Both the position numbers and the translations under genes were made by a program. From a bacterium (lineage in GTDB: Bacteria; Actinomycetota; Thermoleophilia; RBG-16-64-13): a stretch of DNA of 32,000 nucleotides. Below the pieces are notes generated by a model. That model was given only the letters and a program-made list of their open reading frames with translations, had not been told where the DNA came from and did not search any database. This document shows positions 8,913-32,000 of the stretch, in pieces. The DNA lies in assembly GCA_043801935.1 (NCBI GenBank), contig JAZDLO010000130.1, positions 12,051 through 44,050 on the forward strand. Reading direction: 5' to 3'. Position 1 is the stretch's first letter; each line of letters starts with the position of its first letter.

Positions 8913-9222
8913 AGCGGCAAAGGTCTGGGCCGGCGGCCCCGTCCGCGCCGCGCGACCCGTGCCAGGGGGTACGATGCGGGCACAAACGTCAGCGTTGCCT
9001 CGAACCGGACCATACGGATCGTGACGTCCGTGCCGGCCCCCGATCCTCGCGACAAACCTTTTCTGCGCAGTCTCCAGCTTGCCTGTGCTCGTGCCGACCG
9101 CGATCGGTTGCGGCCAGACTTCGGACTCTTCCTGCAACCGGCGAGAGCATCGCGCTCGCCTGCACCAACGTCGAGGCCTACGGTACTACTACTCTAGGCC
9201 AACCGCTCGAACGGGGGGACAT

Positions 9223-11031: not shown

Positions 11032-11042
11032 GGAGGATCAGC

Positions 11043-12188: not shown

Positions 12189-12198
12189 CCGGAGCGTC

Positions 12199-14354: not shown

Positions 14355-14357
14355 GTC

Positions 14358-16780: not shown

Positions 16781-16796
16781 GGAAAGGCGAATCCAG

Positions 16797-17483
16797 ATGG
16801 TTGACGTTGCCCTTCTTAGCCACTCGAAGCACTTCGCGGGCCTGAGTAAACGAGAGCTGGAGCAAGTGGCCGATATTGCCGTGCTGGAAAAGCAGCCGGC
16901 CGGCCATCAAGTGATCGAGGAGAACGAGACGGCTTCAGACCTGTACCTGGTCTCCGAGGGAAGGGTCGCCGTCAAGATGAGGAGCCGCACCGGCCAGGAA
17001 GTGGTAATAGACGAGCTCGGTCCCGGCTCCCTGTTCGGGTGGTCGGCCGTATTGGACGACCAGACGTTCACAGCGGCTGTTTCCACCGTCGAGCCGTCGA
17101 TGCTCGTCGCGATCGACGGCCCCCGTCTCAGACAGCTTTTCCAGGAGTATCCGGCCATCGCCTCCCACTTGGTCACCAGCATCGCCATCGTGATCTCGAG
17201 CCGGCTCGCCCATCTGAGGTCCAAGCTGGCGGACGAGCCTTTCGCCCCGGAGTGGCTCATGTCACCTACCCAGGCCGGGCCCCTCGGCGGACCGTGCCTA
17301 TCACCGACGAGCGATATGCGGAAAATGGCCTGTCCTGCATGCGCCACCGTCAACGGGCCCTTCGGCGTTGTGAACGAGACGGCACAATATCGGTGCCGCA
17401 GCTGCGGGATGGTCTTCTACGCCCCGGCCTGCTGTGAGACTCCGGAAACTGAGTCCGACAAAGCGAAGGGCGGCGTCGCCTAA
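16797..17483 (+). CDS. Cyclic-nucleotide-binding-domain (CAP effector-domain) protein with C-terminal Cys-rich zinc-ribbon; no HTH
   Basis: Beta-barrel cNMP-domain pattern (FAGLSKRELEQVA..GHQVIEENETASDLYLVSEGRVAVKM..LGPGSLFGWSAVL..). The C-terminus reads CPAC-(17 aa)-CRSC..ACC. RBS GAGGAAAGG lies upstream of ATG 16797, which is 17 nt after the mvhA stop. Confidence 0.7.
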   Translation: MVDVALLSHSKHFAGLSKRELEQVADIAVLEKQPAGHQVIEENETASDLYLVSEGRVAVKMRSRTGQEVVIDELGPGSLFGWSAVLDDQTFTAAVSTVEPSMLVAIDGPRLRQLFQEYPAIASHLVTSIAIVISSRLAHLRSKLADEPFAPEWLMSPTQAGPLGGPCLSPTSDMRKMACPACATVNGPFGVVNETAQYRCRSCGMVFYAPACCETPETESDKAKGGVA

Positions 17484-17604
17484 GCGGCGGAGCCTCGTCT
17501 CGCTTTGGCGACAACAGGAGTTACACGTACGCCCGGGAACGGTTAGAGGCCCGTGGCTGAAGGCTTGGCCGCCCGAAGGCCGTGTACTTCGCGCCGCGGC
17601 CCTC

Positions 17605-18090
17605 TTACTGTCGCAGCAGTCGGAGCGCCTCGTGTATGATCTGGCGCGAATAGGTGGGGTAGGCGGACTCCAGTTCGGCCGTCATGCTCTCCGAGAATAT
17701 GGCGTTGTCGACGATCTCCACAGCGAAGATGTGCACGTTCTCCGGAGACGGTATGTGGGCCCCCATCCGCCGGCCCAGCTCGAGCGCCGTCGTGAAGTTG
17801 GCGTCATGCACGTTGGTGAGATTCATGGTCTCTCTGAAGGACTCCCCGGTCATGGCGTGCCACGCCCCGGGCTGTGCCCCCGTGGTCTTTATGGAGTCGA
17901 AGACGATGAGGCGGTCGTAGCCGGTCACCAGGTCAAGGAGGTTGAGCCCGCCTACGGAGCAGTCTTCAAAGATGTGGACGTCGGTCCGGTCCTTCAGTTC
18001 GGTGCTGAAGTCCTTCGCCAGTCTTATCCCTACTGCGTCATCGCAAAGGATGGGATTTCCCATGCCGAGAATGATGGTCCGTGTCGTCAT
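17605..18090 (-). CDS. [NiFe] hydrogenase maturation endopeptidase (HyaD/HybD/FrhD family)
   Basis: MTTRTIILGMGNPILCDDAVGIRLA...LIVFDSIKT...NVHDANF matches the GxGNxxxxDDGxG and D...H metal-ligand pattern of the family. The ORF-track start at 18192 is trimmed to ATG 18090. Confidence 0.85.
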   Translation of the reverse strand: MTTRTIILGMGNPILCDDAVGIRLAKDFSTELKDRTDVHIFEDCSVGGLNLLDLVTGYDRLIVFDSIKTTGAQPGAWHAMTGESFRETMNLTNVHDANFTTALELGRRMGAHIPSPENVHIFAVEIVDNAIFSESMTAELESAYPTYSRQIIHEALRLLRQ

Positions 18091-18175
18091 CTCTGCCTGT
18101 ATCGCACATCGCGCGGCCGCGCGCAAGGGGGAAGGCCGACTTCTGAGAGGCGGCGGATGGTAAGGGGTCGCAAGC

Positions 18176-18520
18176 TTGCATGAGTTGAGCATCGCCCAGG
18201 CTCTTGTGGATCAAGTCGAGGAAGTAAGGACGTCCAACGGCGGCGGCCGTGTTCTCGCCGCCCAGGTCCGGATAGGGACGTGGCATCTGATCGTGCCCGA
18301 GATCCTTGCCGGTTACTACGAACTGCTCGTGCGCGGAACACCCCTGGAGGGCTCGCGCGTGGCTATCGAGACCGTGGACGCGAGGGCCCGCTGTAATAAG
18401 TGCAACAGGATCTTTCCCGTGCAAGAAGCGTGGGTCGTCTGTCCGGATTGCGCGTCGCTCGACGCTTGTCTTTTGAGCGGGAAGGAATTGAATCTCGTCA
18501 GCGTGGAAATGGAGGATTGA
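18176..18520 (+). CDS. hypA: Hydrogenase nickel-insertion protein HypA
   Basis: N-terminal MHELSIA plus zinc site CNKC...CPDC. 114 aa. Confidence 0.92.
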   Translation: MHELSIAQALVDQVEEVRTSNGGGRVLAAQVRIGTWHLIVPEILAGYYELLVRGTPLEGSRVAIETVDARARCNKCNRIFPVQEAWVVCPDCASLDACLLSGKELNLVSVEMED

Positions 18521-18526
18521 GCTAGC

Positions 18527-19213
18527 TTGGAGATCAAGGTCCTACAGAACATACTCGAGGTCAACGACCAGGCGGCGGCCGAGATCCGGAGAGGACTGGC
18601 GGCCGAGGGCGTGACGGCGGTCAACGTGATCAGCGCTCCGGGAGCCGGTAAGACGTCTCTCCTCGAGCGAGTGATCCCTCTCCTGGGGACTCGTTTGCGG
18701 GTGGCCGTCCTCGAAGGCGATATCGCCACCACCCGGGATGCCGAGCGCATCGACAGACTCGGGGTCCCGGTGGTCCAGCTTCTCACGGGCGGGGGTTGTC
18801 ATTTGGAGGCGACGCTGGTCGGCAAGGGGTTGGCCGAGCTGCCTCTGGCGGATCTGGATCTGGTGTTCATCGAGAACGTGGGCAACATCGCCTGTCCCGC
18901 TGAGTTCGACTTGGGTGAAGCAGCCAAGATAGGCCTGCTGAGCGTCACCGAAGGTCACGACAAGCCTGCCAAGTACCCACTGCTGTTCCACGAGGTGGGG
19001 GCTCTGGTGCTGAACAAGGTGGACCTGTTGCCGTACACGGACTTCGACCTCGATCTCTTCGAGCGTGATTTCCGAGGTCTCAACGCGCACGCTCCCGTTT
19101 TCCTGGTCTCCTGCCGGACGGGGGAGGGGATCGCCGCATTCGTCAGCTGGCTGCAGGGAAAAGTGGACGAAGCCCGAGAGGGCGAGGGTCAGCCGGGATC
19201 CACCGGATACTGA
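18527..19213 (+). CDS. hypB: Hydrogenase nickel-incorporation GTPase HypB (no His-rich or CxxCGC N-terminus)
   Basis: P-loop SAPGAGKTSLLE, GGGCHLEA (the CH motif), ENVGN, NKVDL. TTG start 10 nt after GGAGGA. Confidence 0.9.
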   Translation: MEIKVLQNILEVNDQAAAEIRRGLAAEGVTAVNVISAPGAGKTSLLERVIPLLGTRLRVAVLEGDIATTRDAERIDRLGVPVVQLLTGGGCHLEATLVGKGLAELPLADLDLVFIENVGNIACPAEFDLGEAAKIGLLSVTEGHDKPAKYPLLFHEVGALVLNKVDLLPYTDFDLDLFERDFRGLNAHAPVFLVSCRTGEGIAAFVSWLQGKVDEAREGEGQPGSTGY

Positions 19214-21498
19214 TGGTAGCCCGCGTCAGAGCCCGCGTCCAGGGCACGGTGCAGGGAGTGGGCTTCAGGCCCGCCGTCTTTCGGCACGCCGTGGCCTGCG
19301 GCTTGACGGGCTTCGTCCGCAACGATCCCCAGGGCGTCACTCTGGACGTCGAGGGAGACGAAGACAGGGTGGCCGCGTTCTTCGACGGATTGGCGGCGCA
19401 CGCGCCTCAGCAGGCCGAAATCCAGCGGGTGACGACGCGGAGGCTTGCGCCCCGCGGCTACGAGAGTTTCGACGTGATGCCGTCGGAGCCGGGTGGGAGG
19501 GTCAGGGTCCATCTTCCCCCGGATCTGGCTACGTGCCCGGTGTGCCTGAGAGAGTTGTGGGACCCCACCGATCGTCGCCATCGATACCCGTTCATCAACT
19601 GTGTCGACTGCGGACCTCGCTTCACCATCGTGAATGCCCTGCCCTACGATCGCGCCGCTACGTCCATGGACAGCTTCACCCTCTGCAGCGCTTGTGCCCG
19701 GGAATACCACGACCCGGGAGACCGGCGGTTCCACGCCCAACCGAACGCCTGTCCCGAGTGCGGGCCGCATCTTTTCTTGCTCCGGCCGGACGGGGTGGAG
19801 CTGGAGGTCGGTGAATGCGCGCTCCGACAGGCTCAAGGACTGCTCGCGGCCGGGGATATAGTGGCGGTGAAAGGTCTGGGGGGTTACCACCTCGCCTGCA
19901 GCGCCTTTGACGGTGAGGCGATCGCTCGGCTTCGCGATCGAAAAGATCGCCCGCACAAGGCCTTGGCCGTCATGTTCAGGGACTTAACGGCGCTTCGGAA
20001 GTACCTATCGGTCACCCGAGCCGAGATGGCGGAACTGCAGTCGTCGTCCCGGCCCATCGTGGTCGTGCAGGGGCGATTCAGCGCTGCGGTCTCCCCGGAT
20101 ACCGATAGCACTGGGGCCTTCCTGCCCTACACTCCCCTCCATCACCTACTCCTAGAGCCGTTCGAGGCGCTGGTTCTCACCAGCGGCAACCGCAGGGATG
20201 AGCCTATCGCCCGGGACGAATCGGAAGTGCAGCACCTTCTGGGCCCGGTGGCCGACGCCGCCCTTGCTCATGATCGCCCCGTCGCGGGCCGCTGCGACGA
20301 CTCGGTCGTCCGGCTGATCGATGGCGGCCGCCAGTTCTTGCGGCGCGCCCGCGGCTTCGTGCCCATCCCGGTGCGGATCGCCCCCGCTTCTCTCCCGGTG
20401 CTTGCCACCGGAGCAGAGTTGAAGAACACCTTCTGCCTGGTGGGAGGGGGGGAGGCGTTCGTGTCCCAGCACATAGGTGAGCTTCGAGACTATCCCACCT
20501 ACGTCTTCTACCAAGAGGAGATGATCCGTTGGCAGGAGCTGCTGAGGATCGAGCCCCGAATAGTGGCGCACGATCTACATCCGGCCTACCTTTCCTCGAC
20601 CTATGCCCGGAGTCTTGAGAACGTCAGTCTGGTAGGAGTCCAACATCACCACGCCCACGTGGCCAGCGTCATGGCGGAGAAGGGCCTTCTTGGCCCCGTA
20701 ATCGGGATTGCTTTCGACGGGACCGGCTATGGCACCGATGGGACGGTGTGGGGCGGCGAGTTCCTCCTCGCGGACCGGCTCGACTTCCAGCGTCTCTCTC
20801 ATTTCCAGACCTACGCCCTTCCCGGAGGGGAGAAGGCCATCGACGAACCGTGGCGCATGGCTCTCAGCATGTGCTTGGCCGAGGGGATCCCTTGGTCGCG
20901 CGGCGAGCAGAAAGACGAAGGGAAGGAAGTACCGGTCGAGCTGGTGGAGCGACTCATCTCCTCCGGTATCAACTGCCCCCTCACCTCCAGCGCCGGCCGG
21001 CTTTTCGACGCCGTGGCGTCTTTGCTCGGGCTCTGCGATGCGGCCGGCTACGAAGCCCAAGGGGCCATCCGGCTCGAGGCGGCCGCCGATCCGGCCGCCC
21101 GGGGCCACTACCCGTTCGAAATCCACCGAACCGCGGAACCCTGGCTGCTCGATTTCGGGCCCACCCTGCACGCACTGGTGGAAGACCGGGGGCGCTGTAC
21201 GGACGTCGGCCTGGTGGCGGCGAGATTCCACAACACGGTAGCCGCCGCGACTGCGGCGGTCGCCCACAGACTGTGCGCCGATCGGAACGTGACGGACGTC
21301 GTACTCTCGGGCGGCGTGTTCCAAAATGGTCTGCTCCTGGACCGCACCCGCCGGGCGCTGCGAGCTGCCGGTCTGAGCGTGCACGTGAATTCGGTGGTGC
21401 CGCCGAACGACGGGGGTATCTCGCTCGGGCAGGCCGCGGTCGCCGTCGCCCGAGCAGGGGTCTCCGCCGTCGCCAGAGAAGTAGCCCCATGTGCCTAG
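19213..21498 (+). CDS. hypF: Carbamoyltransferase HypF
   Basis: Acylphosphatase domain (VQGTVQGVGFRP), two zinc-finger pairs (CPVC..CVDCGPRF; CSAC..CPECGP), a YrdC-like domain and a Kae1-like domain. 761 aa. Confidence 0.93.
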   Translation: MVARVRARVQGTVQGVGFRPAVFRHAVACGLTGFVRNDPQGVTLDVEGDEDRVAAFFDGLAAHAPQQAEIQRVTTRRLAPRGYESFDVMPSEPGGRVRVHLPPDLATCPVCLRELWDPTDRRHRYPFINCVDCGPRFTIVNALPYDRAATSMDSFTLCSACAREYHDPGDRRFHAQPNACPECGPHLFLLRPDGVELEVGECALRQAQGLLAAGDIVAVKGLGGYHLACSAFDGEAIARLRDRKDRPHKALAVMFRDLTALRKYLSVTRAEMAELQSSSRPIVVVQGRFSAAVSPDTDSTGAFLPYTPLHHLLLEPFEALVLTSGNRRDEPIARDESEVQHLLGPVADAALAHDRPVAGRCDDSVVRLIDGGRQFLRRARGFVPIPVRIAPASLPVLATGAELKNTFCLVGGGEAFVSQHIGELRDYPTYVFYQEEMIRWQELLRIEPRIVAHDLHPAYLSSTYARSLENVSLVGVQHHHAHVASVMAEKGLLGPVIGIAFDGTGYGTDGTVWGGEFLLADRLDFQRLSHFQTYALPGGEKAIDEPWRMALSMCLAEGIPWSRGEQKDEGKEVPVELVERLISSGINCPLTSSAGRLFDAVASLLGLCDAAGYEAQGAIRLEAAADPAARGHYPFEIHRTAEPWLLDFGPTLHALVEDRGRCTDVGLVAARFHNTVAAATAAVAHRLCADRNVTDVVLSGGVFQNGLLLDRTRRALRAAGLSVHVNSVVPPNDGGISLGQAAVAVARAGVSAVAREVAPCA

Positions 21499-21716
21499 CC
21501 GTACCTGCTGAAGTGACCGCCCTTACCGGGGTCACAGCCACGGTCTCCGTGGAAGGTGCCTTTCGAGAGGTGGATGTCTCCCTGGTCGACGGGGTGGCGG
21601 TCGGAGACTACGTGCTGGTTCATGCGGGATTCGCTCTCCATCGCTGGGACCTCGACCAGGTGCTCGAGTGGAGGGCGATCATGGGGGAGATGACGGCGGG
21701 AGAGGAGCCGCGGTGA
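21489..21716 (+). CDS. hypC: Hydrogenase assembly chaperone HypC
   Basis: N-terminal MCLAVPAEV with the essential Cys2. 75 aa. Overlaps the hypF 3' end and is embedded in the longer ORF-track entry 20748..21716. Confidence 0.88.
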   Translation: MCLAVPAEVTALTGVTATVSVEGAFREVDVSLVDGVAVGDYVLVHAGFALHRWDLDQVLEWRAIMGEMTAGEEPR

Positions 21717-22804
21717 CGCCGCCCCTTCCCACCGGCGTCAGGGCGCTCGTCACGGCGATGGAGGACCATGCCCGCCGCATCGGCCGGCCGGTCAGGCTGA
21801 TGGAAGTGTGCGGGACCCACACGACCGTCGCTTTCCGAAGCGGCCTTCGCGGCCTTCTGCCCGAAGGAGTGTCCCTTGTGTCCGGACCCGGCTGTCCGGT
21901 GTGTGTCACCCCGGCGGGGTTCGTCGATGCCGCCATCGAGATGAGCCATCGCCCGGGGGTGGCAGTCACCACCTTCGGCGATCTGGTGCGCGTGCCGGGT
22001 AGTGAGTCGTCACTGGAGAAAGAGCGGGCCGCCGGGGCTCAGGTCAGGGTAGTGTACGCGCCGGCGGACGCTCTCGCCTACGCCCGCTCGGACGCGTCGC
22101 GGATCGTCGTTTTTCTCGCGGTCGGTTTTGAGACGACCGCGCCCGGTGTCGCCCTGACCGTGAAAGCGGCCGAGGAGGAGGGTGTATCGAACTACCTGGT
22201 CTTGTCCGCGCACAAGACGATGCCTCGGGCCATGGAGGCGCTGGTCGGCGACCACGACGTGCAGATCGACGGCTTCCTCTGTCCCGGCCATGTCAGCGTC
22301 ATGACGGGAGCTTCGGCCTTCGCGTTTTTGGCCGAAGAACACAGCATTCCCTGTGTCGTCGCCGGCTTCGAAGAGCTGGACATGCTGCGGGGCGTCGTGA
22401 TGCTTCTCTCCCAATTGGCCGACGGGAGGAGCGAGGTCGAGATCGAATACGATCGGGCGGTGAGCCGTGGGGGCAACAAGGCCGCCCAGCGGATCATGAG
22501 CGAGGTATTCGAGGAGTGCGACTCGGAGTGGCGGGGTCTGGGAGTCATTCCCGGAAGCGGTCTGGCGATCCGTGCCTCCTATGCGGCCCACGAAGCGGCG
22601 GAGACCCTGGGGGTGACCGTGCAGGCCGGCCGGCCTTCGCCCGGATGCCGGTGCGGAGACGTGCTACGCGGGTCGATAGCGCCGCCCGAGTGCCGGCTCT
22701 TCGAGCGAGGGTGCACGCCGTCCCGGCCATTGGGCCCCTGCATGGTCTCCAGCGAGGGAGCGTGCGCCGCGTATGCGCGCTACTGGAGAGGGGACCGGTC
22801 ATGA
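21713..22804 (+). CDS. hypD: Hydrogenase maturation factor HypD
   Basis: CGTHT, GPGCPVCVT, GFETTAP and CPGHVS motifs. GTG 21713 overlaps the hypC stop (GTGA). The alternative start is 21668. Confidence 0.9.
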   Translation: MTPPLPTGVRALVTAMEDHARRIGRPVRLMEVCGTHTTVAFRSGLRGLLPEGVSLVSGPGCPVCVTPAGFVDAAIEMSHRPGVAVTTFGDLVRVPGSESSLEKERAAGAQVRVVYAPADALAYARSDASRIVVFLAVGFETTAPGVALTVKAAEEEGVSNYLVLSAHKTMPRAMEALVGDHDVQIDGFLCPGHVSVMTGASAFAFLAEEHSIPCVVAGFEELDMLRGVVMLLSQLADGRSEVEIEYDRAVSRGGNKAAQRIMSEVFEECDSEWRGLGVIPGSGLAIRASYAAHEAAETLGVTVQAGRPSPGCRCGDVLRGSIAPPECRLFERGCTPSRPLGPCMVSSEGACAAYARYWRGDRS

Positions 22805-23811
22805 CCGTCGAGCGCGTGCTGCTGGCGCACGGCGGCGGCGGCCGGCTGACCAAAGAGCTGATCGAGCAGGTCTTTCTGCCCTGCCTCGGTAACCCCGCTC
22901 TCAACCCCCTCGATGACGCCGCCCTTCTCGACCTGGAAGCGGGTGACTGGGCTTTCACCACCGATAGCTACGTGGTCTCGCCGCTGTTCTTCCCCGGCGG
23001 GGACATCGGCAAGCTCGCCGTGTGCGGCACGGTCAACGACCTGGCTGTCAAAGGCGCCCGCCCCCTCTGGATGAGTCTCGGGCTGGTGTTGGAGGAGGGC
23101 CTCCCCCTGGCCGACCTGCGCCGCGTGGCGGAGTCGATAGGATCTTGGACGGGGTCGGTGGGGGTGGCTGTGGTCGCCGGCGACACCAAAGTCGTGGAGA
23201 GAGGGCGATGCGACGGGCTCTACGTCAACACTGCCGGGATCGGGAAGGTCGTCACTTCCTTGCCCCTGGGACCCGACAGCATCAGGCCGGGCGACTCGGT
23301 GATCGTCAGCGGATATCTGGGCGATCACGGGATAGCGGTCTTGAGCCGGCGCTCCGGGATCTCCTTCTCCCCGGAGGTCTCGAGTGACTGCGCGCCTCTT
23401 TGGGGTCTGGTGAGCACGGTCCTCGCCACCGGCCGCACCGTGCATGCGATGCGCGATCTGACCAGGGGCGGCCTGGCGGGGGCGCTGTGCGACCTGGCCG
23501 AGAGCTCGGGACTGGGGCTGCGTATCTGGGAAGAGAAGCTGCCGGTCCGCAGCGTTGTCAGGGGAGCCTGCAGCCTGCTCGGTTTCGACCCCCTCGCCAT
23601 CGCGAACGAGGGCAACATGGTCGTTTTCTGCCCGGCCGCCGACGCCCCGGACGTTCTGAGCGCGATGAAGCGCCACCCCGTGGGCCGATGGGCGGAGATC
23701 GTCGGCGACGTACGCGAAGAGCCCAAGAGAACGGTGCTTATGGTGAGCAGCATCGGGGGCGAGCGGGTGGTGGACATGCCCACGGGAGAGGATCTTCCCA
23801 GGATCTGCTGA
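22801..23811 (+). CDS. hypE: Hydrogenase maturation carbamoyl dehydratase HypE
   Basis: An AIR-synthase-like fold protein ending in the HypE signature PRIC. ATGA overlap with hypD. The ORF-track start at 22516 is rejected. Confidence 0.92.
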   Translation: MTVERVLLAHGGGGRLTKELIEQVFLPCLGNPALNPLDDAALLDLEAGDWAFTTDSYVVSPLFFPGGDIGKLAVCGTVNDLAVKGARPLWMSLGLVLEEGLPLADLRRVAESIGSWTGSVGVAVVAGDTKVVERGRCDGLYVNTAGIGKVVTSLPLGPDSIRPGDSVIVSGYLGDHGIAVLSRRSGISFSPEVSSDCAPLWGLVSTVLATGRTVHAMRDLTRGGLAGALCDLAESSGLGLRIWEEKLPVRSVVRGACSLLGFDPLAIANEGNMVVFCPAADAPDVLSAMKRHPVGRWAEIVGDVREEPKRTVLMVSSIGGERVVDMPTGEDLPRIC

Positions 23812-23938: not shown

Positions 23939-24080
23939 GGGAAAGGATCTGCCGAATCGGGACGGCTCTGTCGCGCACAGGCAGTATGCGCCATGACTCG
24001 CGAAAGGCCATTCGACAGTCGGGCGCGAGAGCTACCGAGCGTTCGTCTGGGCGGGGTTGATTCTAAAGAAGGAGAGTGTA

Positions 24081-24464
24081 GTGTCCAGAGTACTTATCGT
24101 GGACGACGATCTCGACGTGGTCGTCGCGACTTCGCTGGTCCTGGAGAAGGCGGGCTATACCGTCAGTAGTGCCTCCAACAGCGGAGACGGCCTCCGCGCT
24201 GTGGAGGAACTCAGGCCAGACCTTCTGGTCCTGGACGTCATGATGGAAGAACCGGACGACGGCCTGCGGCTGGCGCGGGACTTGCGCCGCAAGGGCCACG
24301 CTCTTCCCATCCTCATGCTTACCAGCGTGAACCAGGCGATGGGCCTGCGCATCGACAAGGACGAGGAGATCGTCCCGGTGGACGAGTTCTTGGAGAAGCC
24401 GGCGGATCCGGCCACCCTGGTGGATATGGTCAAGAGGTTGCTCGAGGGTCGGAAGGGAGCATAG
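24081..24464 (+). CDS. Stand-alone response-regulator receiver domain (CheY-like, no output domain)
   Basis: VLIVDDD acidic pocket, phospho-acceptor LLVLDVMM, LMLTS, FLEKP. GTG 24081 follows AAGGAGAG (24069-24076). The stop abuts the next ATG. Confidence 0.85.
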   Translation: MSRVLIVDDDLDVVVATSLVLEKAGYTVSSASNSGDGLRAVEELRPDLLVLDVMMEEPDDGLRLARDLRRKGHALPILMLTSVNQAMGLRIDKDEEIVPVDEFLEKPADPATLVDMVKRLLEGRKGA

Positions 24465-24986
24465 ATGCTGGTAACCGAACGCGACAGGATGCGGGAGGAC
24501 GTGACCGCGATCGCGGAGTTGACGGGGTTCAATCGCAGTTCCCTGATCCCCATCCTGCAAGACGTCAAGCACAAACACCGGTGCATCGACAGCTACGCCA
24601 TGCAGCTGATCGCGGATGTCTTGGATATCCACCCGGTGGAGGTCTACGCAGTCGCCACCTTCTTTGCCTTTCTGAATCCGGAATTAGAGGGCCGTTACGT
24701 CTTCCGGCTGTGCCGCACTCTCTCGTGTGAGTTCGAGGGCAAGGAGCAGGTGGCCAAGCAATTGGAGGAGGATCTCGGCATCGCTTTTGGGGAGACATCG
24801 GCCGACGGCAACTTCAGCCTCGAGTGGGCCAACTGCATGGGCATGTGCGACCAGGGCCCGGCGATGCTCGTCAACGGCAAGGTCTACACGCAGCTCACTC
24901 CGATCAAAGCCAGAGCCGTCGTCGAGGAGTACCTCAGCCTGGCCGAGGATCACGGGACGCACAGCGTCGGGGGGCGTGTGAGATGA
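24465..24986 (+). CDS. hydC: NuoE-like [2Fe-2S] thioredoxin-fold subunit of a multimeric [FeFe] hydrogenase (HydC/HndA-like)
   Basis: CRTLSC ... CMGMC cluster ligands and the LIPILQ..VATFFAF pattern of NuoE/HoxE. Confidence 0.88.
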   Translation: MLVTERDRMREDVTAIAELTGFNRSSLIPILQDVKHKHRCIDSYAMQLIADVLDIHPVEVYAVATFFAFLNPELEGRYVFRLCRTLSCEFEGKEQVAKQLEEDLGIAFGETSADGNFSLEWANCMGMCDQGPAMLVNGKVYTQLTPIKARAVVEEYLSLAEDHGTHSVGGRVR

Positions 24987-26188
24987 CCGTGGATACGACC
25001 ATAGAGACCAAGGTCCATCGTCTGACCTTCGCGACCGTCCTCGCGGGCGAAGGCCTACGCAAGGCACTGGCTATGCCGCGCGCGGACATCATCGACGCCG
25101 TGCGCGATTCCCGACTCAAAGGGCGCGGGGGCGCAGGGTTCCCGACCGGGATGAAGTGGGACTTCGCTGCCGCGGAGAAGCGCGAGCCCAAGTACATCAT
25201 CTGCAATGCCGACGAGGGTGAGCCGGGGACGTTCAAGGACCGGGTCATCCTGACCGACTACCCCGACCTGGTCCTCGAAGGGCTGACCATCGGCGCCCGA
25301 GCCGCGGGCGCCGCGCCCGGGCTCATCTACCTGCGAGCGGAATATGGCTACCTTCATTCCCACCTCGAGGAGGTCATCGCACAGCGCCGGCAGGCCGGTC
25401 TGCTGGGAGAGAACATCGGCGACATCGAAGGCTTCGACTTCGATGTCGTGGTTGCGATGGGCGCGGGCGCCTACGTCTGCGGCGAAGAGACGGCCCTCAT
25501 CGAGTCGCTCGAGGGCTTTCGCGGCGAGCCTAGGAACCGGCCCCCCTTCCCCGTGGTCTCGGGGTTCCTCCACCGCCCCTCGGTGGTCAATAACGTGGAG
25601 ACCCTTGCTTGGGTGGCCTGCATCTTCGCCAAAGGCGTCGACTGGTTCAAGAGCAGCGGCACCGTCAGTTCCACCGGAGGCAAGTTGTTCAGCATCTCCG
25701 GTGATTGTGCACGGCCCGGGGTCTACGAGTTCCCGTTCGGCATCACGGTCGGAGAGCTGCTCGAGGAAGTCGGCGGTGAGAACGCCAAAGCAGTGCAGAT
25801 CGGCGGGGCCTCGGGCCGCTGTGTCCCCCGCTCGGCGTTCCCTCGGAGGATCGCGTTCGAAGACATCCCCACGGGCGGGTCCGTCATCGTGATCGGTCCC
25901 AGCAGGGACATGCTCGCCGTGGCCCACAATCTTCTCGAGTTCTTCGTCGACGAGTCGTGCGGCCAGTGCACCCCGTGCCGGCTCGGCAATCGGAAACTCC
26001 TCGAGGGAGTGGAGATGCTGATGGAGGGGACGTGCTCAGCCGAGTATCTGAACGATCTCAAGGCTCTCTGCAACACGATGCAGGTGGCGTCCAAATGCGG
26101 CCTCGGCCAGAGCAGCTCCGTGGCCTTCATCTCTATCCTGGAGCACTTTGGGGACGAGATCATCGGCCACGCCGGAAAAACACGTTAG
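24983..26188 (+). CDS. hydB: NuoF-like FMN/NAD(H)-binding [4Fe-4S] subunit (HydB-like), core-only form of about 401 aa
   Basis: GRGGAGFPTGMKW, ICNADEGEPGTFKDR, GAGAYVCGEETALIESLEG, and ESCGQCTPCR...C (N3-type cluster). ATGA overlap with the NuoE-like gene. No extra N- or C-terminal Cys-cluster domains. Confidence 0.9.
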   Translation: MTVDTTIETKVHRLTFATVLAGEGLRKALAMPRADIIDAVRDSRLKGRGGAGFPTGMKWDFAAAEKREPKYIICNADEGEPGTFKDRVILTDYPDLVLEGLTIGARAAGAAPGLIYLRAEYGYLHSHLEEVIAQRRQAGLLGENIGDIEGFDFDVVVAMGAGAYVCGEETALIESLEGFRGEPRNRPPFPVVSGFLHRPSVVNNVETLAWVACIFAKGVDWFKSSGTVSSTGGKLFSISGDCARPGVYEFPFGITVGELLEEVGGENAKAVQIGGASGRCVPRSAFPRRIAFEDIPTGGSVIVIGPSRDMLAVAHNLLEFFVDESCGQCTPCRLGNRKLLEGVEMLMEGTCSAEYLNDLKALCNTMQVASKCGLGQSSSVAFISILEHFGDEIIGHAGKTR

Positions 26189-26224: not shown

Positions 26225-28180
26225 ATGAGCGACACGATCGACACTGATTTCACGCCGAAAGGCGACAAGACATACGCCGAAAGGCGCCGCGCTCCCCTCA
26301 GCCAGCTCTTCGAGCCCGTGGCCGAGCCGGAGAACAGGGACGCCATCGGCGCCACGGTCTCGATCACCATCGACGGGATCGAGACGAAGGTGCCCTTCGG
26401 AAGCACGATCCTCGATGCGGCCAAGGGCATCGGGGTCCGTATCCCGACTCTTTGCTACCACCCCGATCTGGAGATCGCCGGCATCTGCCGCATCTGCGTG
26501 GTGGAGATCGAGGGGCAGCGGACCTTGCAGGCGGCGTGCGCCTATCCGATCACCTCCGCTATCACCATCAACACCTATTCCCAGGCGGTGCGGATCGCCC
26601 GCCGGCACGTGCTCGACCTCATGCTCTCCGAGCACTGCGGTGACTGCTACTGCTGCAAGCGCAACGGCAACTGCGAGCTGCAGTCGCTTGCCGAGGAGTA
26701 CGGGGTGGACAAGTTCCGCTTCGGGCACTGTGAGAATCCTGTGCCCGTGGACGACTCGAGCTACTCCGTCGTGCGTGACATGAACAAATGCATCCGTTGC
26801 CGCCGGTGCGTGCGCACCTGTATCGACGTGCAGGAAGTGGGAGTCTTAGAGGCCATCAACCGGTCCGACCAGGTCGAGATCGCGACCTTCCTCAACAAAC
26901 CGTTGCTGAACGTCGTGTGCATCAACTGCGGCCAGTGCATCAACCGGTGTCCCACAGCGGCGCTCTATGCCAAGAACGCAAGCGACTCGGTCTGGAAGGC
27001 CCTCGATGACCCCACGAAGTACGTGGTCATCCAGACGGCACCGTCCCCGAGGGCGGCGATGGGCGAGATGTTCGGTCTAGAGCCGGGGACGTCGGTGACC
27101 ATGGAGATGAACTCGGGGCTGCGCCGTATGGGCTTCGAGAGGGTCTTCGACACCAACTTCACGGCCGACCTGACCATCATCGAAGAGGGCACCGAGTTGA
27201 TCCTGCGCCTGTACAAGGCGCTGGTGCACGGGGACAAAGAGGTAGCGCTGCCCCAGTTCACCAGCTGCTCGCCGGGCTGGGTCAAGTATTTAGAGCACTT
27301 CTACCCCGAGTACCTTGCGAATGCGTCGAGTGCCAAGAGTCCTCAGCAGATGTTCGGGGCCCCGATCAAGACCTACTACGCCGAGAAGTTGGGCCTCGAT
27401 CCCAAGGACATCGTGAGCGTGGCGCTCATGCCTTGCTCGGCGAAGAAGTTCGAGTGTAACCGCCCGGAGATGTACTCCAGCGGTTACAAAGACGTCGACT
27501 TTGGTCTCACCACCCGTGAGCTGGGCAAGATGTTCAGGCAAGCCGGCCTCCATGTGCCCACTCTGCCCAAGTCCGACTTCGACAACCCCTTCGGCACCGC
27601 TACCGGTTCGGGCCTCATCTTCGGGGCCACCGGAGGTGTCATGGAGTCCGCGCTGCGCACGGTGATCGAACTGGTGACCGGTGGGAAAGTGGAGACCATC
27701 TACGAGTACGGCGATATCATCCCGGTCCGGGGGTTCGAGGGCGTCCGCTATGCGGAGATCAACATCGACTCGGTAGGCCCGGTGCCCGCCCTTCTGCAGC
27801 ACCTGGTCCCCGACTGGGAGTGGCTCAAAGGCGCGACTCTCAAGGTGGCTGTGGCGCACGGTACGGCCAACGCTAAACGCGTGATGGAAGATATCAAGGC
27901 CGGTGGCCGATTCAGCAAATGCCACTTCATCGAGTTCATGGCTTGCCCGGGCGGCTGCCTGGGAGGCGGCGGCCAGCCGATCCCCACCAGCAAAGAGATC
28001 CGGGCGGCTCGGGCGAAGGCGATCTATGCGGAAGAAAAGACGCTGGAAGTGCGGAAATCATACGAGAACCCGGCCGTAGCCCGGATCTACGAGGAGTTCC
28101 TCACGGACGGCCCCTGCGGCCACAAGAGCCACGAGCTGCTGCACACCAAGTACAAGGCCCGCGGGAAGTTCATCGAATAG
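26225..28180 (+). CDS. hydA: [FeFe] hydrogenase catalytic subunit HydA (2Fe-2S + His-ligated 4Fe-4S + 2x4Fe-4S + H-domain + C-terminal SSU-like tail)
   Basis: N-terminal CYHPDLEIAGICRICVV..AC, HCGDCYCCKRNGNC, CIRCRRCVRTC, CINCGQCINRCP. H-cluster motifs: FTSCSPGW (a variant of TSCCPxW), MPCSAKKFE, EFMACPGGCLGGGGQP. Confidence 0.93.
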   Translation: MSDTIDTDFTPKGDKTYAERRRAPLSQLFEPVAEPENRDAIGATVSITIDGIETKVPFGSTILDAAKGIGVRIPTLCYHPDLEIAGICRICVVEIEGQRTLQAACAYPITSAITINTYSQAVRIARRHVLDLMLSEHCGDCYCCKRNGNCELQSLAEEYGVDKFRFGHCENPVPVDDSSYSVVRDMNKCIRCRRCVRTCIDVQEVGVLEAINRSDQVEIATFLNKPLLNVVCINCGQCINRCPTAALYAKNASDSVWKALDDPTKYVVIQTAPSPRAAMGEMFGLEPGTSVTMEMNSGLRRMGFERVFDTNFTADLTIIEEGTELILRLYKALVHGDKEVALPQFTSCSPGWVKYLEHFYPEYLANASSAKSPQQMFGAPIKTYYAEKLGLDPKDIVSVALMPCSAKKFECNRPEMYSSGYKDVDFGLTTRELGKMFRQAGLHVPTLPKSDFDNPFGTATGSGLIFGATGGVMESALRTVIELVTGGKVETIYEYGDIIPVRGFEGVRYAEINIDSVGPVPALLQHLVPDWEWLKGATLKVAVAHGTANAKRVMEDIKAGGRFSKCHFIEFMACPGGCLGGGGQPIPTSKEIRAARAKAIYAEEKTLEVRKSYENPAVARIYEEFLTDGPCGHKSHELLHTKYKARGKFIE

Positions 28181-28214
28181 CGGGCGCTGACGCGACCGAC
28201 GAGCAGGACCAGAC

Positions 28215-28246
28215 ACCGGCGGCCCCGGCAGCACGAGGCCGCCGGT
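28215..28246. terminator. GC-rich hairpin between the convergent hydA and kinase genes (possible bidirectional terminator)
   Basis: Perfect 10-bp stem ACCGGCGGCC (28215-28224) / GGCCGCCGGT (28237-28246) with a 12-nt loop. Only a weak T tract follows. Confidence 0.4.
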
Positions 28247-28268
28247 TGCGTCACCGGACAAGCCCCTT

Positions 28269-29447
28269 CTAGCGGTCCCGCCGGGCCGTGCCTGCCGGGA
28301 CCGGGTCTCGGCTCGCAGCGCCGGCGTCGCGCAGGGTCACCGTGAAGGTGCTACCGGAGCCCTTCTCGCTCTTGACCGTCGCATCGCCACCATAGAGCTG
28401 CGCGAGCTTGCGCACGGTGGATAGCCCAAGTCCGCTGCCGATGACTTTGACGGTGTCCTCGTTCTTGATGCGCACGAATTCTGCGAACAGTTTCGCGCTC
28501 TCATCGGGCGTCAGCCCGATGCCTGTGTCGGTCACCGAGATCTTGACACCTTCCCCTTCTCGGGCAAGGGTCACCGTCACCGAGCCGCCGTCCCGATTGT
28601 ATTTGACCGCGTTTGAGATGAGATTGTTGAGGACTATCTCGATCTCGCCGGGATCGGCCGTCATCTTCACGGGCTCGCCGGGACGGAGCCCCATCGTGAT
28701 GCCCCGCGCGACCGCCTCCGTCGAGAAGAGGTCGACAGACGCCTTCGCCAAGCCCCGCACGTCCACGGTGGCGAAGTTCCTCTGCTTCTGCCCGGATTCG
28801 ATGCGGGTCAGGTCGAGAAGATCGAAGATGAGCTTGCGCATCCCTTCCAACCGGATGAGGCTGCGGTCGATCATCTGCAGGTGTTCAGGAGGCTCCTCAG
28901 TCCGCAGGATCTTCAAATACCCCTCGACGGCGTTGATGGGAGCTTTCAACTCGTGGGCGAGCACGGAGATGAAGTTGAACCGCACCTGCCTTTTCTCCTC
29001 TGTCAGCCTGCGGGCCTCCCTGCTGAGTATCAGCTGGTCGGTCGCCTTGCGCACCGCGTAGCGCAGCTCTTCCGGGGAGAATGGTTTAGGCAGGAAATCG
29101 TAGGCGCCCAGCTTGGTCGCTTGGACCGCGGTCTCGAAGGTGGCGTAGGCCGTGATCATGATGACCATCATCCCTCGGCCCCGATGGGCCAGCTCGGTGA
29201 GGACATCGAGCCCATCCATGCCGGGCAGTTTCAGGTCGAGTAGCAGCAGGTCGAACTCCGTCCCGGCGGCCATGCTGTCGAGGAACTGCTCACCGCTGGC
29301 GAAGTAGGCCGAATCGTAGGCGACCTCGATGTCCACGTCGGCCACGTGGACCCTATACTTGTCGAGGATGCGGCGCACTGCGAGGTGCAGGGGTTCCTCG
29401 TCGTCCACCATGGCGACTCTGATCATCTGCTGCCGTGATCCCACCAT
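28269..29447 (-). CDS. Hybrid receiver-histidine kinase (N-terminal REC, then HisKA, then HATPase_c)
   Basis: REC: MVDDEEP, LLLLDLKLPGMDG, MITAYAT, FLPKPF. H-box FISVLAHELKAPINAV, N-box NLISNAVKYN, G1 DTGIGL, G2 GSGLGLS. The start is ATG 29447, 7 nt after the upstream stop; ATG 29426 is an alternative. Confidence 0.88.
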   Translation of the reverse strand: MVGSRQQMIRVAMVDDEEPLHLAVRRILDKYRVHVADVDIEVAYDSAYFASGEQFLDSMAAGTEFDLLLLDLKLPGMDGLDVLTELAHRGRGMMVIMITAYATFETAVQATKLGAYDFLPKPFSPEELRYAVRKATDQLILSREARRLTEEKRQVRFNFISVLAHELKAPINAVEGYLKILRTEEPPEHLQMIDRSLIRLEGMRKLIFDLLDLTRIESGQKQRNFATVDVRGLAKASVDLFSTEAVARGITMGLRPGEPVKMTADPGEIEIVLNNLISNAVKYNRDGGSVTVTLAREGEGVKISVTDTGIGLTPDESAKLFAEFVRIKNEDTVKVIGSGLGLSTVRKLAQLYGGDATVKSEKGSGSTFTVTLRDAGAASRDPVPAGTARRDR

Positions 29448-29454
29448 GTACCCC

Positions 29455-31497
29455 TTACACTCCGCTCTGGACCGATCCCTGGACCACACGCTCCTCGTGG
29501 CGCGGGAGCGTCACCGTGAACGTAGCGCCGGTGGCGCCGGCTGCAGGATCGGCGTTCGACTCCACCTCGATTCGCCCCCGGTGCATCTTCACGATCCCAT
29601 GAGTGACGGCCAGTCCCAAACCGGTGCCCATACCCACCTGCTTGGTCGTGAAGAAGGGATCGAACAGCTTGGCCATGTTCTCCTCAGGGATCCCCTCACC
29701 GGTGTCCGAAACCCGGATCGTCACTTCATCCGGCTGGTCGCTGAGAGCGATGACGATCGCCCCACCTTTGGAGATCGCATGTTGGGCGTTGCTCAGCAGG
29801 TTGGTGAGCACCTGTACGATCTGGTCCGAATCGATCTCGGCCACCGGATCGGCTAGGGTGTTTTCCACGTGCACCTCGATACTCTGCTCGGTGGGGAGGG
29901 TGCGCAGGACCTTTTCCAGGAGCTCGGCGACGTCCGTCGGTTGCCGGACCACCCGACTCTGGCGGGCGAAGTTGAGGAGGCCGCCTATGATGCGCTTGCA
30001 GCGGTTGCCCTGGTCGACGATGGTCTCGAGGTCTTGCCGCACCTGGGACCCTTCTTCGCACTCCTCGAGGAGTAGGTGGGCGTGGAGCAGCAGGGTGCCC
30101 AGTGGGTTATTTACTTCATGGGCGATGCCTGCCGCGAGCTGTCCCATGCTGGCCAGCTTGCCCGATCGTTCCAGCGCCTCCTTTGCGCTCTCGAGAGATC
30201 GGTGCGAGTCTTCGAGCTCTTCGTAAGCGCTGCGCAGCTGCTCGATCGTGTGAGGCAGACACATCTCGGAACCGGCGAGACCCGCGTAGATAGCCCGAGC
30301 GTGGTCGAGACAGGTGTCATAGCCGCAGGCGCCGCAATTGAGCAGGTCGGCCTCCGATGACTTGCCCATCCGGTGCAGTATGGCCTCCAGTTCTTCCGGG
30401 GTGGCCGAGTCACCGAGGGTCTGGTGGTCGGCGTAGTACGACCGGGACAAGTCGAGCGAGCGGTAGCGCTCGAGAGCCTCTGCCGTCTCGCCGGGGTGGT
30501 CCCGATCCAGGGTCGTTAGCCGGCTCTTGGCGTAGTTGCTGATGCGGGTGCGGCGCTGGAGCATGGTCTCGTCACTGGTCATCCCTGCCCCGGCGAAACA
30601 CCCCTGACAGGAGAGAACGTCCACGAGCCGGGTCTCGGCGTGCGCCACGTCGAACTCGCTGATGGTCTCGAGGAACTCGCCTCGCCCTTCGACCACGACC
30701 ACCTCTCCGCTCAGCAGGTCCTCCTTGATCTCCGCGGTCTGCAGAAGCCCCCCGGAGATGGGGAACACCGCCCCCACCCCTCCATAAGGGGGATCGAAGC
30801 CGTCGTCGCCCTTCACGGCTTCCGGCTCGATCCCCCGCTTCTGGAACATGTCGCGCAACTCGGCGAAAGTCAGGGCGGCATCTATCTCGCTGTGGGTGGC
30901 GTCGATGGAGGACCGCTTCTTGGCGATACAGGGACCGATGAACACCACTTCCAGGTCATCGCCCAGGTCCTGGCGCAAGACCCGGGCCATGGCCACCATG
31001 GGAGAGACCACGGGGGCGAGATATGGCATCAGGCGCGGGTGGTACTTACGCACATAGGAGACCACAGCGGGGCAAGGCGTGGTGATATAGCGGCTCTCTG
31101 GGTTCTCCTCGAGCAGCCTGCGGTAATCCTGAGCCACCAGATCGGCTCCGAGGGATACTTCGTGCACCGAATCGAACCCGAGCGCACGGATCATAGCCAC
31201 CAGGGTACCCGGATCGACGTCGGTGAACTCAGCCGGGAAACTCGGAGCGACGGTGGCCGCGACCCGAGCGTCGGACTCGAGCAAGGCGAAGGCCCGCTCC
31301 GTGTCGTCGCGGACGTGCTTGGCGTTCTGACTGCACACCCGCAGGCAGTTTCCGCATCCGATACAGCGCGGCTGGACGACGCTCGCCTGGCCGTCCACCA
31401 CCCGGATGGCCTTGGCCGGGCATTCGCGCACGCAGGCGTAGCACATGCGGCACTTCTCGCCGATTATGGTGACAAGAGGGTTGTCCCAGGTGGGCAT
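29455..31497 (-). CDS. Sensory [FeFe]-hydrogenase-like protein (HydS-type, group C) fused to a histidine kinase
   Basis: aa 16-55: CRMCYACVRECP + CIGCGNCLRVCS. aa 70-310: Fe-hydrogenase large-subunit-like domain with modified H-cluster motifs ITTPCPAV, FIGPCIAKKRS, VLSCQGCFAGAG. aa 388-413: CGACGYDTC..C putative Fe-S domain. aa 455-665: H-box GIAHEVNNPL, N-box NLLSNAQHA, G1 DTGEGI, F-box FDPFFTTK, G2 GTGLGLA. RBS AAGGA lies 7 nt upstream of ATG 31497. Confidence 0.85.
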   Translation of the reverse strand: MPTWDNPLVTIIGEKCRMCYACVRECPAKAIRVVDGQASVVQPRCIGCGNCLRVCSQNAKHVRDDTERAFALLESDARVAATVAPSFPAEFTDVDPGTLVAMIRALGFDSVHEVSLGADLVAQDYRRLLEENPESRYITTPCPAVVSYVRKYHPRLMPYLAPVVSPMVAMARVLRQDLGDDLEVVFIGPCIAKKRSSIDATHSEIDAALTFAELRDMFQKRGIEPEAVKGDDGFDPPYGGVGAVFPISGGLLQTAEIKEDLLSGEVVVVEGRGEFLETISEFDVAHAETRLVDVLSCQGCFAGAGMTSDETMLQRRTRISNYAKSRLTTLDRDHPGETAEALERYRSLDLSRSYYADHQTLGDSATPEELEAILHRMGKSSEADLLNCGACGYDTCLDHARAIYAGLAGSEMCLPHTIEQLRSAYEELEDSHRSLESAKEALERSGKLASMGQLAAGIAHEVNNPLGTLLLHAHLLLEECEEGSQVRQDLETIVDQGNRCKRIIGGLLNFARQSRVVRQPTDVAELLEKVLRTLPTEQSIEVHVENTLADPVAEIDSDQIVQVLTNLLSNAQHAISKGGAIVIALSDQPDEVTIRVSDTGEGIPEENMAKLFDPFFTTKQVGMGTGLGLAVTHGIVKMHRGRIEVESNADPAAGATGATFTVTLPRHEERVVQGSVQSGV

Positions 31498-31622
31498 CAG
31501 CGATCCTTGTCCGCGGCGCCATCCCGCGCTACCGACTCGGCGTCCTGAGTCAAGTTCGCGGGCATAAGAATGCTATGCTTTTGACAAGGTACTCTTGCTC
31601 TGAGGCAACGTCAACCAGCGAT

Positions 31623-32000
31623 GTGCCGTCGGCGACCGGCTCACGTACCAGAAAGGCGAGCTCGACGATCTCATCACCTGCGGGCAAACTCGCGACAAGG
31701 TCGCGCCGCTGGACTGTGTGGGCTGTGGCACTCGCGCTGACCGTTGGGCCGGTATGGGCCGGGGGGTGCGGGTCGTCCGCGGCGACGATCACGACCTCGG
31801 GCGCCATAACGACCTCGGGCGCCGCCGTCACCACCAGCGCTACGGCCAAGCTGGACAAGCTCACCCTGGTTGCTCCGCCCGGACCTATGGCCATACCGCT
31901 GGCGTACATGGCGGTCAACAACAAGCTGGCCGACGTGGCCGAGAAGACGGAAGTGGTGGTCTGGCAGAACGCCGAGCAGCTCAAAGCCATGGTGGCCGGC
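31623..32000 (+). CDS. Putative Tat/lipoprotein-signal substrate-binding protein, 5' part only (start uncertain; ATG 31575 is an alternative); continues beyond window end
   Basis: Frame 3 reads ..KLATRSRRWTVWAVALALTVGPVWAGGCGSSAATITTSGAITTSGAAVTTSATAKLDKLTLVAPPGPMAIPLAYMAVNNKLADVAEKTEVVVWQNAEQLKAMVAG. That gives a twin-Arg-like n-region, an h-region, the lipobox AGGC, an S/T/A linker, and then an SBP-like body. GC3 is high. It is not in the ORF track because no stop lies within the window. Confidence 0.55.
   Translation, partial: MPSATGSRTRKASSTISSPAGKLATRSRRWTVWAVALALTVGPVWAGGCGSSAATITTSGAITTSGAAVTTSATAKLDKLTLVAPPGPMAIPLAYMAVNNKLADVAEKTEVVVWQNAEQLKAMVAG
31788..31823 (+). repeat. Tandem 18-nt duplication inside the lipoprotein linker
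   Basis: ATCACGACCTCGGGCGCC / ATAACGACCTCGGGCGCC (17/18 identical), encoding ITTSGA twice. Confidence 0.8.

Follow-up and report, generated by a model that had tools for sequence, protein, structure and literature searches.

Can an [FeFe]-hydrogenase fold that is covalently joined to a histidine kinase report H2 to a phosphorylation pathway? The question is raised by a minus-strand gene of 680 codons (the sensor gene; its product, the sensor) in a 32,000-nucleotide stretch of an Actinomycetota/Thermoleophilia-like metagenome-assembled genome (MAG; NCBI GenBank assembly GCA_043801935.1, contig JAZDLO010000130.1, positions 12,051 to 44,050 of the forward strand), referred to below as the window and numbered from its first letter. 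The gene probably encodes a cytoplasmic sensor histidine kinase, presumably dimeric, whose input is a group C ('sensory') [FeFe]-hydrogenase module, and H2 sensing by this protein is plausible from its sequence. The sensory role of group C/D [FeFe] hydrogenases is still labelled 'putative', and for TamHydS of Thermoanaerobacter mathranii, which has no PAS domain and is the best studied of such proteins, both the signalling partner and the route have yet to be established (PMC13104023). An H-domain covalently joined to a canonical kinase would offer a direct enzymatic read-out, H2-dependent autophosphorylation, with which the question becomes testable in vitro.

Both the architecture and its genomic setting have been recorded before, in publications and in databases, and the sensor is a further member, from an Actinomycetota-like MAG. 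The fusion type was noted in Elusimicrobia in 2020 (bioRxiv 10.1101/765248), and in 2024 it was described with a predicted structure as 'BfuT', which is assigned to group C3, carries a histidine-kinase domain and is encoded 3' of bfuA in Hydrogenedentota, Calditrichota and Bacteroidota (PMC11406978). Compared by description rather than by sequence, the published fusions resemble the sensor in combining an H-domain with a fused kinase, in lacking PAS and in having their gene next to those of a trimeric group A hydrogenase; the sensor differs in its host and in belonging to a kinase gene pair that is convergent with, not co-directional to, the hydrogenase genes. There are hundreds of related clusters, and the value of the sensor lies in testability rather than surprise. 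As far as the searches we ran can tell, three features appear to be new here and supply concrete hypotheses: a CxGC signature of the output-fused clade, a linker locked to whole heptads, and a cross-phylum cassette of sensor histidine kinase (sensor-HK), single-domain response regulator (REC) and REC-histidine kinase hybrid (REC-HK).

Domain anatomy, linker and outputs

The sensor gene opens at an ATG with AAGGA 8-12 nt 5' of it, and the N-terminus of its product agrees with the start consensus (MPTWDNPL) derived from 60 homologues. A Pfam scan (curated annotation cutoffs; for PAS, a limit of E<=0.01) agreed with the domain order proposed in an earlier first-pass annotation of this DNA, namely ferredoxin, H-domain, four-Cys module and HisKA/HATPase_c (Table 1). 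That annotation had named a sub-threshold H-domain score as a possible refutation; the score was well above the cutoff (149.1 vs 22.1 bits, E 2e-43), and positions 2-245 of the 245-position model were covered. The domain matches are far beyond chance. NCBI already lists the identical protein, derived from a MAG, and the architecture is shared by more than 120 clusters (63-88% identity). Conservation was read from a close set of 61 homologues (64-88% identity) and a wider set of 139 cluster representatives (27-53% identity). All eight Cys of the N-terminal ferredoxin motifs are invariant in the close set, and the Cx2Cx4Cx16C module, the C-terminal-cluster motif that defines the M2e/M2f HydS proteins (PMC8163306), is kept in nearly all of the wider set.

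Table 1. Features of the sensor gene and of the surrounding window (window positions; residues refer to the sensor)
Feature	Position	Strand	Residues and evidence
Sensor histidine kinase gene	29455..31497	-	680 aa: 2x[4Fe-4S] + H-domain + FeS module + coiled coil + HisKA + HATPase_c
Two ferredoxin-type CxxCxxCxxxC motifs	31321..31470	-	residues 10-59; C16/19/22/26, C45/48/51/55; Pfam Fer4_10/Fer4_9
[FeFe]-hydrogenase H-domain	30586..31266	-	residues 78-304; PF02906 Fe_hyd_lg_C
C-terminal FeS module Cx2Cx4Cx16C	30253..30342	-	residues 386-415; C388, C391, C396, C413; PF04060, 31.7 bits, cutoff 23
Helical linker	30121..30258	-	residues 414-459; Leu heptad L421/L428/L435/L442 into DHp helix
HisKA/DHp	29959..30147	-	residues 451-513; H-box AH460EVNNPL; PF00512, 52.9 bits, cutoff 26.9
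HATPase_c	29500..29832	-	residues 556-666; PF02518, 91.9 bits, cutoff 26.4
REC-HisKA-HATPase hybrid kinase (REC-HK)	28269..29447	-	probable ATG 7 nt after sensor stop; Pfam
hydA (group A [FeFe] hydrogenase)	26225-28180	+	Pfam; convergent to kinase pair
hydB (NuoF-like)	about 24980-26188	+	Pfam; convergent to kinase pair
hydC (NuoE-like)	24465-24986	+	Pfam; convergent to kinase pair
Single-domain REC response regulator	24057..24464	+	directly 5' of hydC; Pfam
hypB, hypF, hypD, hypE	18527-23811		
cNMP-binding (Crp-like) regulator	16743-17483		
[NiFe] hydrogenase large-subunit match	within 14387-16780		
HdrA-like flavoprotein + FeS genes	9079-13923		

By its H-box, its catalytic and ATP-binding (CA) boxes and its profile scores, the sensor is a predicted HisKA-family histidine kinase. 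The N, G1 (DTGEG), F and G2 (GTGLGL) boxes are intact, and H460, N566/N570, D598-G600-G602, F612/F615/F616 and G624-G626-G628 are invariant in the homologue alignment; a pseudokinase was rejected, every catalytic box being invariant. The best solved match of the transmitter half was ZraS 9jfj (E 2e-35), models of AtoS and ZraS also matched, and the C-terminal half of the AlphaFold2 (AF2) model matched ZraS in a Foldseek search. The transmitter thus resembles those of the ZraS, AtoS and NtrB kinases, but these have periplasmic or PAS inputs and NtrC-type partners, and none of the latter is encoded nearby here. As the first-pass annotation had stated, no PAS domain intervenes between sensor and transmitter halves: the scan gave no PAS match in the protein, and C413 and H460 lie just 47 residues apart, a stretch that the model shows as helical throughout. 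A hidden PAS was likewise rejected: Pfam gave no match, the space is too small and the model shows no beta-sheet over residues 305-480.

The length of this linker varies in whole heptads. Measured from the last FeS-module Cys to the phospho-His, it was 33, 40, 47, 54 or 68 residues in 27 of 30 cluster representatives, 40, 47 or 54 in all 29 independent genome loci, and 47 in each of the 61 close homologues; the in-register spacings, which comprise 56 of the 59 unrelated fusions (representatives plus loci), are all congruent to 5 modulo 7. Leu is conserved at 421, 428, 435 and 442 with helical periodicity, and the AF2 model places helices at 414-431 and 438-479. Since linker lengths differ only by whole heptads, the pattern would imply one continuous coiled-coil helix running from the FeS module into DHp helix 1, in which case signal transfer would be mechanical (rotation, piston or scissoring).

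The input module (two Fer4 motifs, H-domain and FeS module) is also found on other outputs. Besides direct fusion to HisKA/HATPase, it is joined to HisKA_3, PAS-HK and GAF-GAF-HK transmitters, to sigma54 AAA+ domains with HTH_8, to PAS-sigma54, to GGDEF and to GGDEF-HD-GYP; proteins with alternative output fusions or HisKA_3 are P0144, P0167, P0138, P0135, P0265, P0163 and P0153. The sigma54- and GGDEF-type fusions would be one-component H2- or redox-responsive activators and c-di-GMP enzymes, and one literature search that paired sensory [FeFe] hydrogenase with GGDEF gave no relevant result. Varied outputs on one module form a pattern that is typical of signalling input domains.

This modularity bears on a different reading, which we consider very improbable, in which the protein is a catalytic subunit that joins the HydABC complex and its kinase half is accessory. 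Such proteins have been named the T 'subunit' of Bfu clusters (PMC11406978), they adjoin hydA at most loci, and both TmHydS of Thermotoga maritima and TamHydS turn over H2, if slowly (PMC8163306, PMC10055695). Against a catalytic role, however, the sensor has neither the proton-relay Cys nor the remainder of the group A proton pathway, it stayed below the cutoffs of the catalytic-group models (TIGR02512, 105.7 vs 405.95; TIGR04105, 181.6 vs 450), the same module sits on sigma54, GGDEF and other signalling outputs, and all kinase motifs are intact. The features by which putative sensory [FeFe] hydrogenases (group C/D; M2e/M2f) are recognized were all found: two [4Fe-4S] motifs, loss of the relay Cys, Cx2Cx4Cx16C and an adjoining group A hydrogenase. 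The PAS domain that follows the FeS module in M2f/TmHydS-type proteins was not, and in the tree described below the sensor falls outside the PAS-only clade. A sequence search of the PDB returned no HydS-type structure.

The predicted H-cluster site and its P3 motif

The three H-cluster motifs of the sensor read ITTP141C142P (P1), G188-P-C190-IAK193K (P2) and LSC297QGC300FAG (P3). The first-pass annotation had counted three of the four expected H-cluster Cys; in fact all four are present (C142, C190, C297 and C300), and only the P3 spacing differs, being CxxC (C297/C300) rather than CxxxC, as it had correctly read. The close set shows no variation at these four residues, at K193 or at any of the twelve accessory-cluster Cys; in the wider set the four Cys are >=90% conserved and position 193 is Lys in 122 of 139. 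Positional equivalence of the P3 Cys rests on Pfam model ends, C300 lying four residues before the end of the PF02906 model exactly as C578 of the neighbouring HydA does, and on the family alignment. In the AF2 model the H-domain has a pLDDT of ~90, and Foldseek aligned it to CbA5H, to HydA of HydABC complexes and to CpI with E~1e-20 over ~430 columns.

The closest characterized counterpart is TmHydS (M2f, group C, HydDB C3), which has been shown spectroscopically to bind an H-cluster, with A131 at the position of CpI C299 and G177 at that of CpI M353 (PMC10055695). We rebuilt its motifs from the published mutagenesis primers (PMC10055695 SI; the forward and reverse primers for S267 differ by two letters, and the reverse was used). 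P1 reads ITT-A131-C-PVVV in TmHydS and ITT-P141-C142-PAVV in the sensor, and P2 reads VFV-G177-P-C-IAKKS and VFI-G188-P-C190-IAKKRS, respectively. The position mapping of CpI and TmHydS carries over to the sensor, so that P141 replaces the proton-relay Cys, and on this alignment the active site is of the sensory type, as the first-pass annotation had anticipated. Pro at the relay position occurs in ~10% of HydDB sensory sequences (PMC10055695) and in 25 of our 139 representatives. The annotation wished to see the ligand spacing checked by alignment: P1 and P2 closely resemble those of TmHydS, and P3 is one residue shorter than in TmHydS, TamHydS and CpI. P2 also carries a local change: in GPCIAKKRSS (window 30910-30921, residues 193-196) the Glu of MPCxxKxxE (CpI E361) is Ser.

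TmHydS shares with the sensor two N-terminal [4Fe-4S] motifs, loss of the relay Cys, Gly at the position of CpI M353 and Cx2Cx4Cx16C, and a TmHydS-like representative was 36.5% identical to the sensor over 411 aa; unlike the sensor, TmHydS ends in a PAS domain, has no kinase and carries ACYGSC in place of SCQGC at P3. TamHydS (M2e, 'group D') resembles the sensor in having no PAS, the same accessory-cluster layout and a gene beside those for a bifurcating hydrogenase and a kinase-like ATPase (PMC8163306); it differs in having Ser, not Gly, before the P2 Cys, CIGGC at P3 and the kinase-like protein encoded by a separate gene, and its identity to the sensor was 27% over 226 aligned residues (tblastn against an OCR-damaged coding sequence). 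The sensor is nearer to the TmHydS lineage than to TamHydS, consistent with a place on the C3 side as judged from these comparisons. Two statements of the first-pass annotation need amending in this light. Characterized HydS proteins were taken to be PAS-containing, which holds for TmHydS but not for TamHydS (PMC8163306). A histidine-kinase-linked group C class is indeed listed by HydDB, as C1, 'histidine kinase-linked (putative)' with its role given as undetermined, but the C1 kinase is usually a neighbouring gene (PMC6163223, PMC8542988) and fusions to a histidine-kinase domain are placed in C3 (PMC11406978).

The P3 spacing divides the family. CxxxC is found in TmHydS (AC269YGSC273), TamHydS (ACIGGC), CpI and the HydA of the window (CPGGC), compared with SCQGC in the sensor, and the 139 representatives comprise 78 with CxGC and 60 with CxxxC. 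In a neighbor-joining tree of the sensor region (137 relatives), 58 of the 60 CxxxC proteins group together in a single clade, and the nearest neighbour has the same P3 spacing in 136 of 137 cases. The CxxxC clade carries PAS-only tails (TmHydS-like M2f) and the CxGC proteins carry real output domains, as typed from 10 exemplars plus jackhmmer, with ~30 tails of the 139 representatives unlabelled. Residues of the 2Fe pocket are kept in the sensor (A84-P85-S86, S165-P166, K193, F245-P246 and G249-G250, from hhalign to the HydA family and the census), and the corresponding positions (APS, SP, K, F/Y-P, GG) are equally conserved in the CxGC clade and in the TmHydS-like CxxxC clade. This equal conservation argues that the CxGC proteins, including the sensor, still hold a predicted [2Fe] subsite, with C300 as the putative bridging Cys. 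In many fusions outside the close family (L005-L015, L023, L025, L027, L029, L032 and L034), P3 reads LCCxGC, with an extra Cys directly before the first P3 Cys, so that ligand pairs of CxxxC and of CxxC spacing would both be possible; the sensor has Ser there (LSCQGC).

The cassette and the proposed mechanism

Within the window the probable ATG of the REC-HK gene follows the stop codon of the sensor gene by 7 nt (the open reading frame as mechanically called reaches a GTG at 29489), and on this spacing the two are probably co-transcribed. The first-pass annotation placed the sensor gene convergent to hydCBA; its linkage and orientation stand, with the correction that the REC-HK gene lies between the sensor gene and hydA. 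That hydA scored 777.7 bits against NF040763, 'NADH-dependent [FeFe] hydrogenase, group A6' (cutoff 765), and its product matched HydA1 of PDB 7q4v and 8a6t with E 1e-170 and 1e-150. Scanning 28100-32000 for promoters and terminators gave no match, and the 88 bp on which hydA and REC-HK converge (28181-28268) thus show no recognisable terminator.

Four relatives (67-78% identity) carry the same genes co-directionally, in the order REC, sensor-HK, REC-HK, REC, hydCBA, with a second hydrogenase operon upstream; in the window the kinase pair has the opposite orientation to REC-hydCBA. In contrast to all relatives, the window holds no REC gene and no hydCBA upstream of the sensor gene, and no single REC gene lies between its two kinases; an open reading frame of 146 aa 5' of the sensor gene (31550-31990, minus strand) had no Pfam match. 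In one relative (L004), a HydG gene (TIGR03955, 546 bits) lies 7 kb downstream of the sensor orthologue.

Full-length fusions numbered 29 in a scan of species-representative genomes, with identities of 36-54%, and came from Planctomycetota (with Ca. Kuenenia stuttgartiensis among them), Bacteroidota, Ignavibacteriota, Desulfobacterota, Myxococcota, Bdellovibrionota, Marinimicrobia, Elusimicrobiota and Syntrophorhabdaceae. The order hydC-hydB-hydA, sensor-HK, REC, REC-HK was found in at least 20 of the 29 loci, some of which continue into REC and a further hydCBA. In at least eight phyla the fusion gene adjoins hydCBA and has a REC-HK gene after it, as in the window. The REC-HK of these cross-phylum loci is a full-length orthologue of the window gene in about two-thirds (285-390 bits), the rest being longer and matching in two stretches; full-length orthologues also lie 3' of the sensor gene in the four close relatives. 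By linkage, the REC-HK is a likely candidate phosphoryl acceptor of the sensor.

In the mechanism that we propose, each chain would carry two N-terminal [4Fe-4S] clusters, an H-cluster on C142, C190, C297 and C300 (C300 bridging) and a further [4Fe-4S] cluster on the Cx2Cx4Cx16C module, and replacement of the relay Cys by P141 would make turnover slow. Reaction of H2 at the H-cluster, once matured by HydEFG, would alter the state of the H-domain; the change would pass mechanically through the FeS module and the coiled coil (414-459) to the DHp helix and set the rate of H460 autophosphorylation. The phosphoryl group would then move to the REC domain of the co-transcribed REC-HK, to the single-domain RECs of the cassette, or to both, and so tune the adjacent NADH-linked or bifurcating HydCBA. 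Directly in support are the domain anatomy, the conservation of ligands and pocket, the heptad-locked linker, the intact kinase motifs and the cross-phylum linkage, and we hold the full scheme to be somewhat more probable than an even chance. We infer the cofactor content, H2 responsiveness, sign of regulation, phosphotransfer partners and final output of the sensor. A broader proposal, whose chances we put slightly short of even, is that the CxGC H-domain with Cx2Cx4Cx16C constitutes a portable, bona fide H2-input lineage apart from the PAS-only HydS proteins, wired by a heptad-quantised coiled coil to kinases, sigma54 activators and diguanylate cyclases, and that the sensor-HK/REC/REC-HK set may be an H2-responsive phosphorelay controlling trimeric [FeFe] hydrogenases in many anaerobic phyla.

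Several observations weigh against H2 sensing by this route. H2 does not reduce the C-terminal cluster in TamHydS (PMC13104023), and a literature search on [FeFe] hydrogenase and autophosphorylation found no experiment linking any group C/D protein to phosphorylation. The cassette contains no DNA-binding output regulator that we could find. The monomer AF2 model has a pLDDT <50 over residues 431-459, within the proposed coiled coil. At the H-cluster site, P3 is shorter by one residue than in every [FeFe] hydrogenase with an observed H-cluster (CpI, TmHydS, TamHydS); the profile-profile alignment (hhalign) of the sensor family to group A HydA spans residues 14-256 only, short of P3; and the Glu of MPCxxKxxE, kept in 136 of 139 representatives, is Ser in the sensor and Ala or Ser in close homologues.

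The short P3 and the altered P2 also favour a sensor kinase for redox or electron pressure, in which the H-domain would bear a [4Fe-4S] cluster only (as in Nar1/Narf-type proteins) or the N-terminal clusters would report ferredoxin or NADH poise; we regard this, the main rival reading, as unlikely. CxxC is the typical ferredoxin spacing, that of a plain [4Fe-4S] cluster, and the P3 of the sensor has it; the shortened CxGC is confined to the output-fused clade, and the P2 Glu is lost in the sensor's own family. P1-P3 are, moreover, hardly found in some group C proteins, but these motif-poor proteins are of the C1 type, not that of the sensor (PMC11406978). Residues that in CpI touch only the [2Fe] subsite (APS, SP, the P2 Lys, Phe and GG) are as conserved as in the TmHydS-like clade, and linkage to hydCBA is strict across phyla, with HydG nearby, both of which speak against the redox reading.

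A sensor of O2, CO or NO, whose labile clusters would be destroyed or inhibited so that the kinase reports loss of anoxia and switches off O2-sensitive hydrogenases, is improbable in our view. Both H-clusters and [4Fe-4S] clusters are sensitive to O2, the reaction of TamHydS with O2 gives an unusual 'Hair' state and its CO reactivity is altered (PMC8163306), and the cassette would by its context govern O2-sensitive enzymes. No sequence feature is specific to such a role, however, the conservation pattern is explained by H2 sensing, and no oxidative-stress genes were found linked to the cassette.

An outline precedent for H2 sensing by a hydrogenase-kinase pair comes from the [NiFe] group 2b systems HoxBC-HoxJ (Cupriavidus necator) and HupUV-HupT, in which a slow hydrogenase is the H2 receptor for a kinase that controls hydrogenase genes. 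The sensor would follow the same path from slow hydrogenase receptor to histidine kinase; unlike it, HoxBC-HoxJ has an unrelated metal site and fold and consists of separate polypeptides joined through the PAS-like domain of HoxJ, and the inputs are not homologous.

Further hydrogenase and sensor-like genes

The HydA of the window has TSCSPGW at P1 (27260-27280, HydA residues 346-352), not TSCCPGW. In a gapless alignment the position of the CpI C300 ligand is Ser, leaving a single Cys, which hhalign pairs instead with ligand C142 of the sensor. TSCSPGW is also carried by each of the four HydA paralogues that relatives L001 and L002 have and by HydA1 of Acetobacterium woodii (PDB 7q4v), which marks it as a natural variant with a solved example; HydA1 of T. 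kivui (8a6t) has TSCCP. A literature text search for 'TSCSP' returned nothing relevant.

A second hydrogen system occupies window positions 9079-23811, upstream of the REC-hydCBA genes (Table 1), and brings [NiFe] and [FeFe] systems together at the locus.

The four relatives carry a second sensor-like gene that is absent from the window (L001 212-3592; L002 2-4145; L003 1-2594; L004 1-2625). Its product, of 530-615 aa, reads HATPase_c_2/HATPase_c, Fer4, a weak H-domain and PF04060 FeS; after the gene come DRTGG-like, PHP and HATPase_c genes and then an operon of hydC, a NuoF-GltD fusion (about 1030 aa) and hydA. It resembles the Hydrogenedentota 'group C1 with HATPase_C', whose motifs are hard to find (PMC11406978). 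Three Bacteroidales loci (L008 1369-3363; L032 1141-3033; L034 3-1718, minus strand) have a second sensor-module gene without a kinase match, 5' of hydC; it adds to the sensor-HK 3' of hydA and fits the 'two bfuT genes' of Bacteroidota (PMC11406978).

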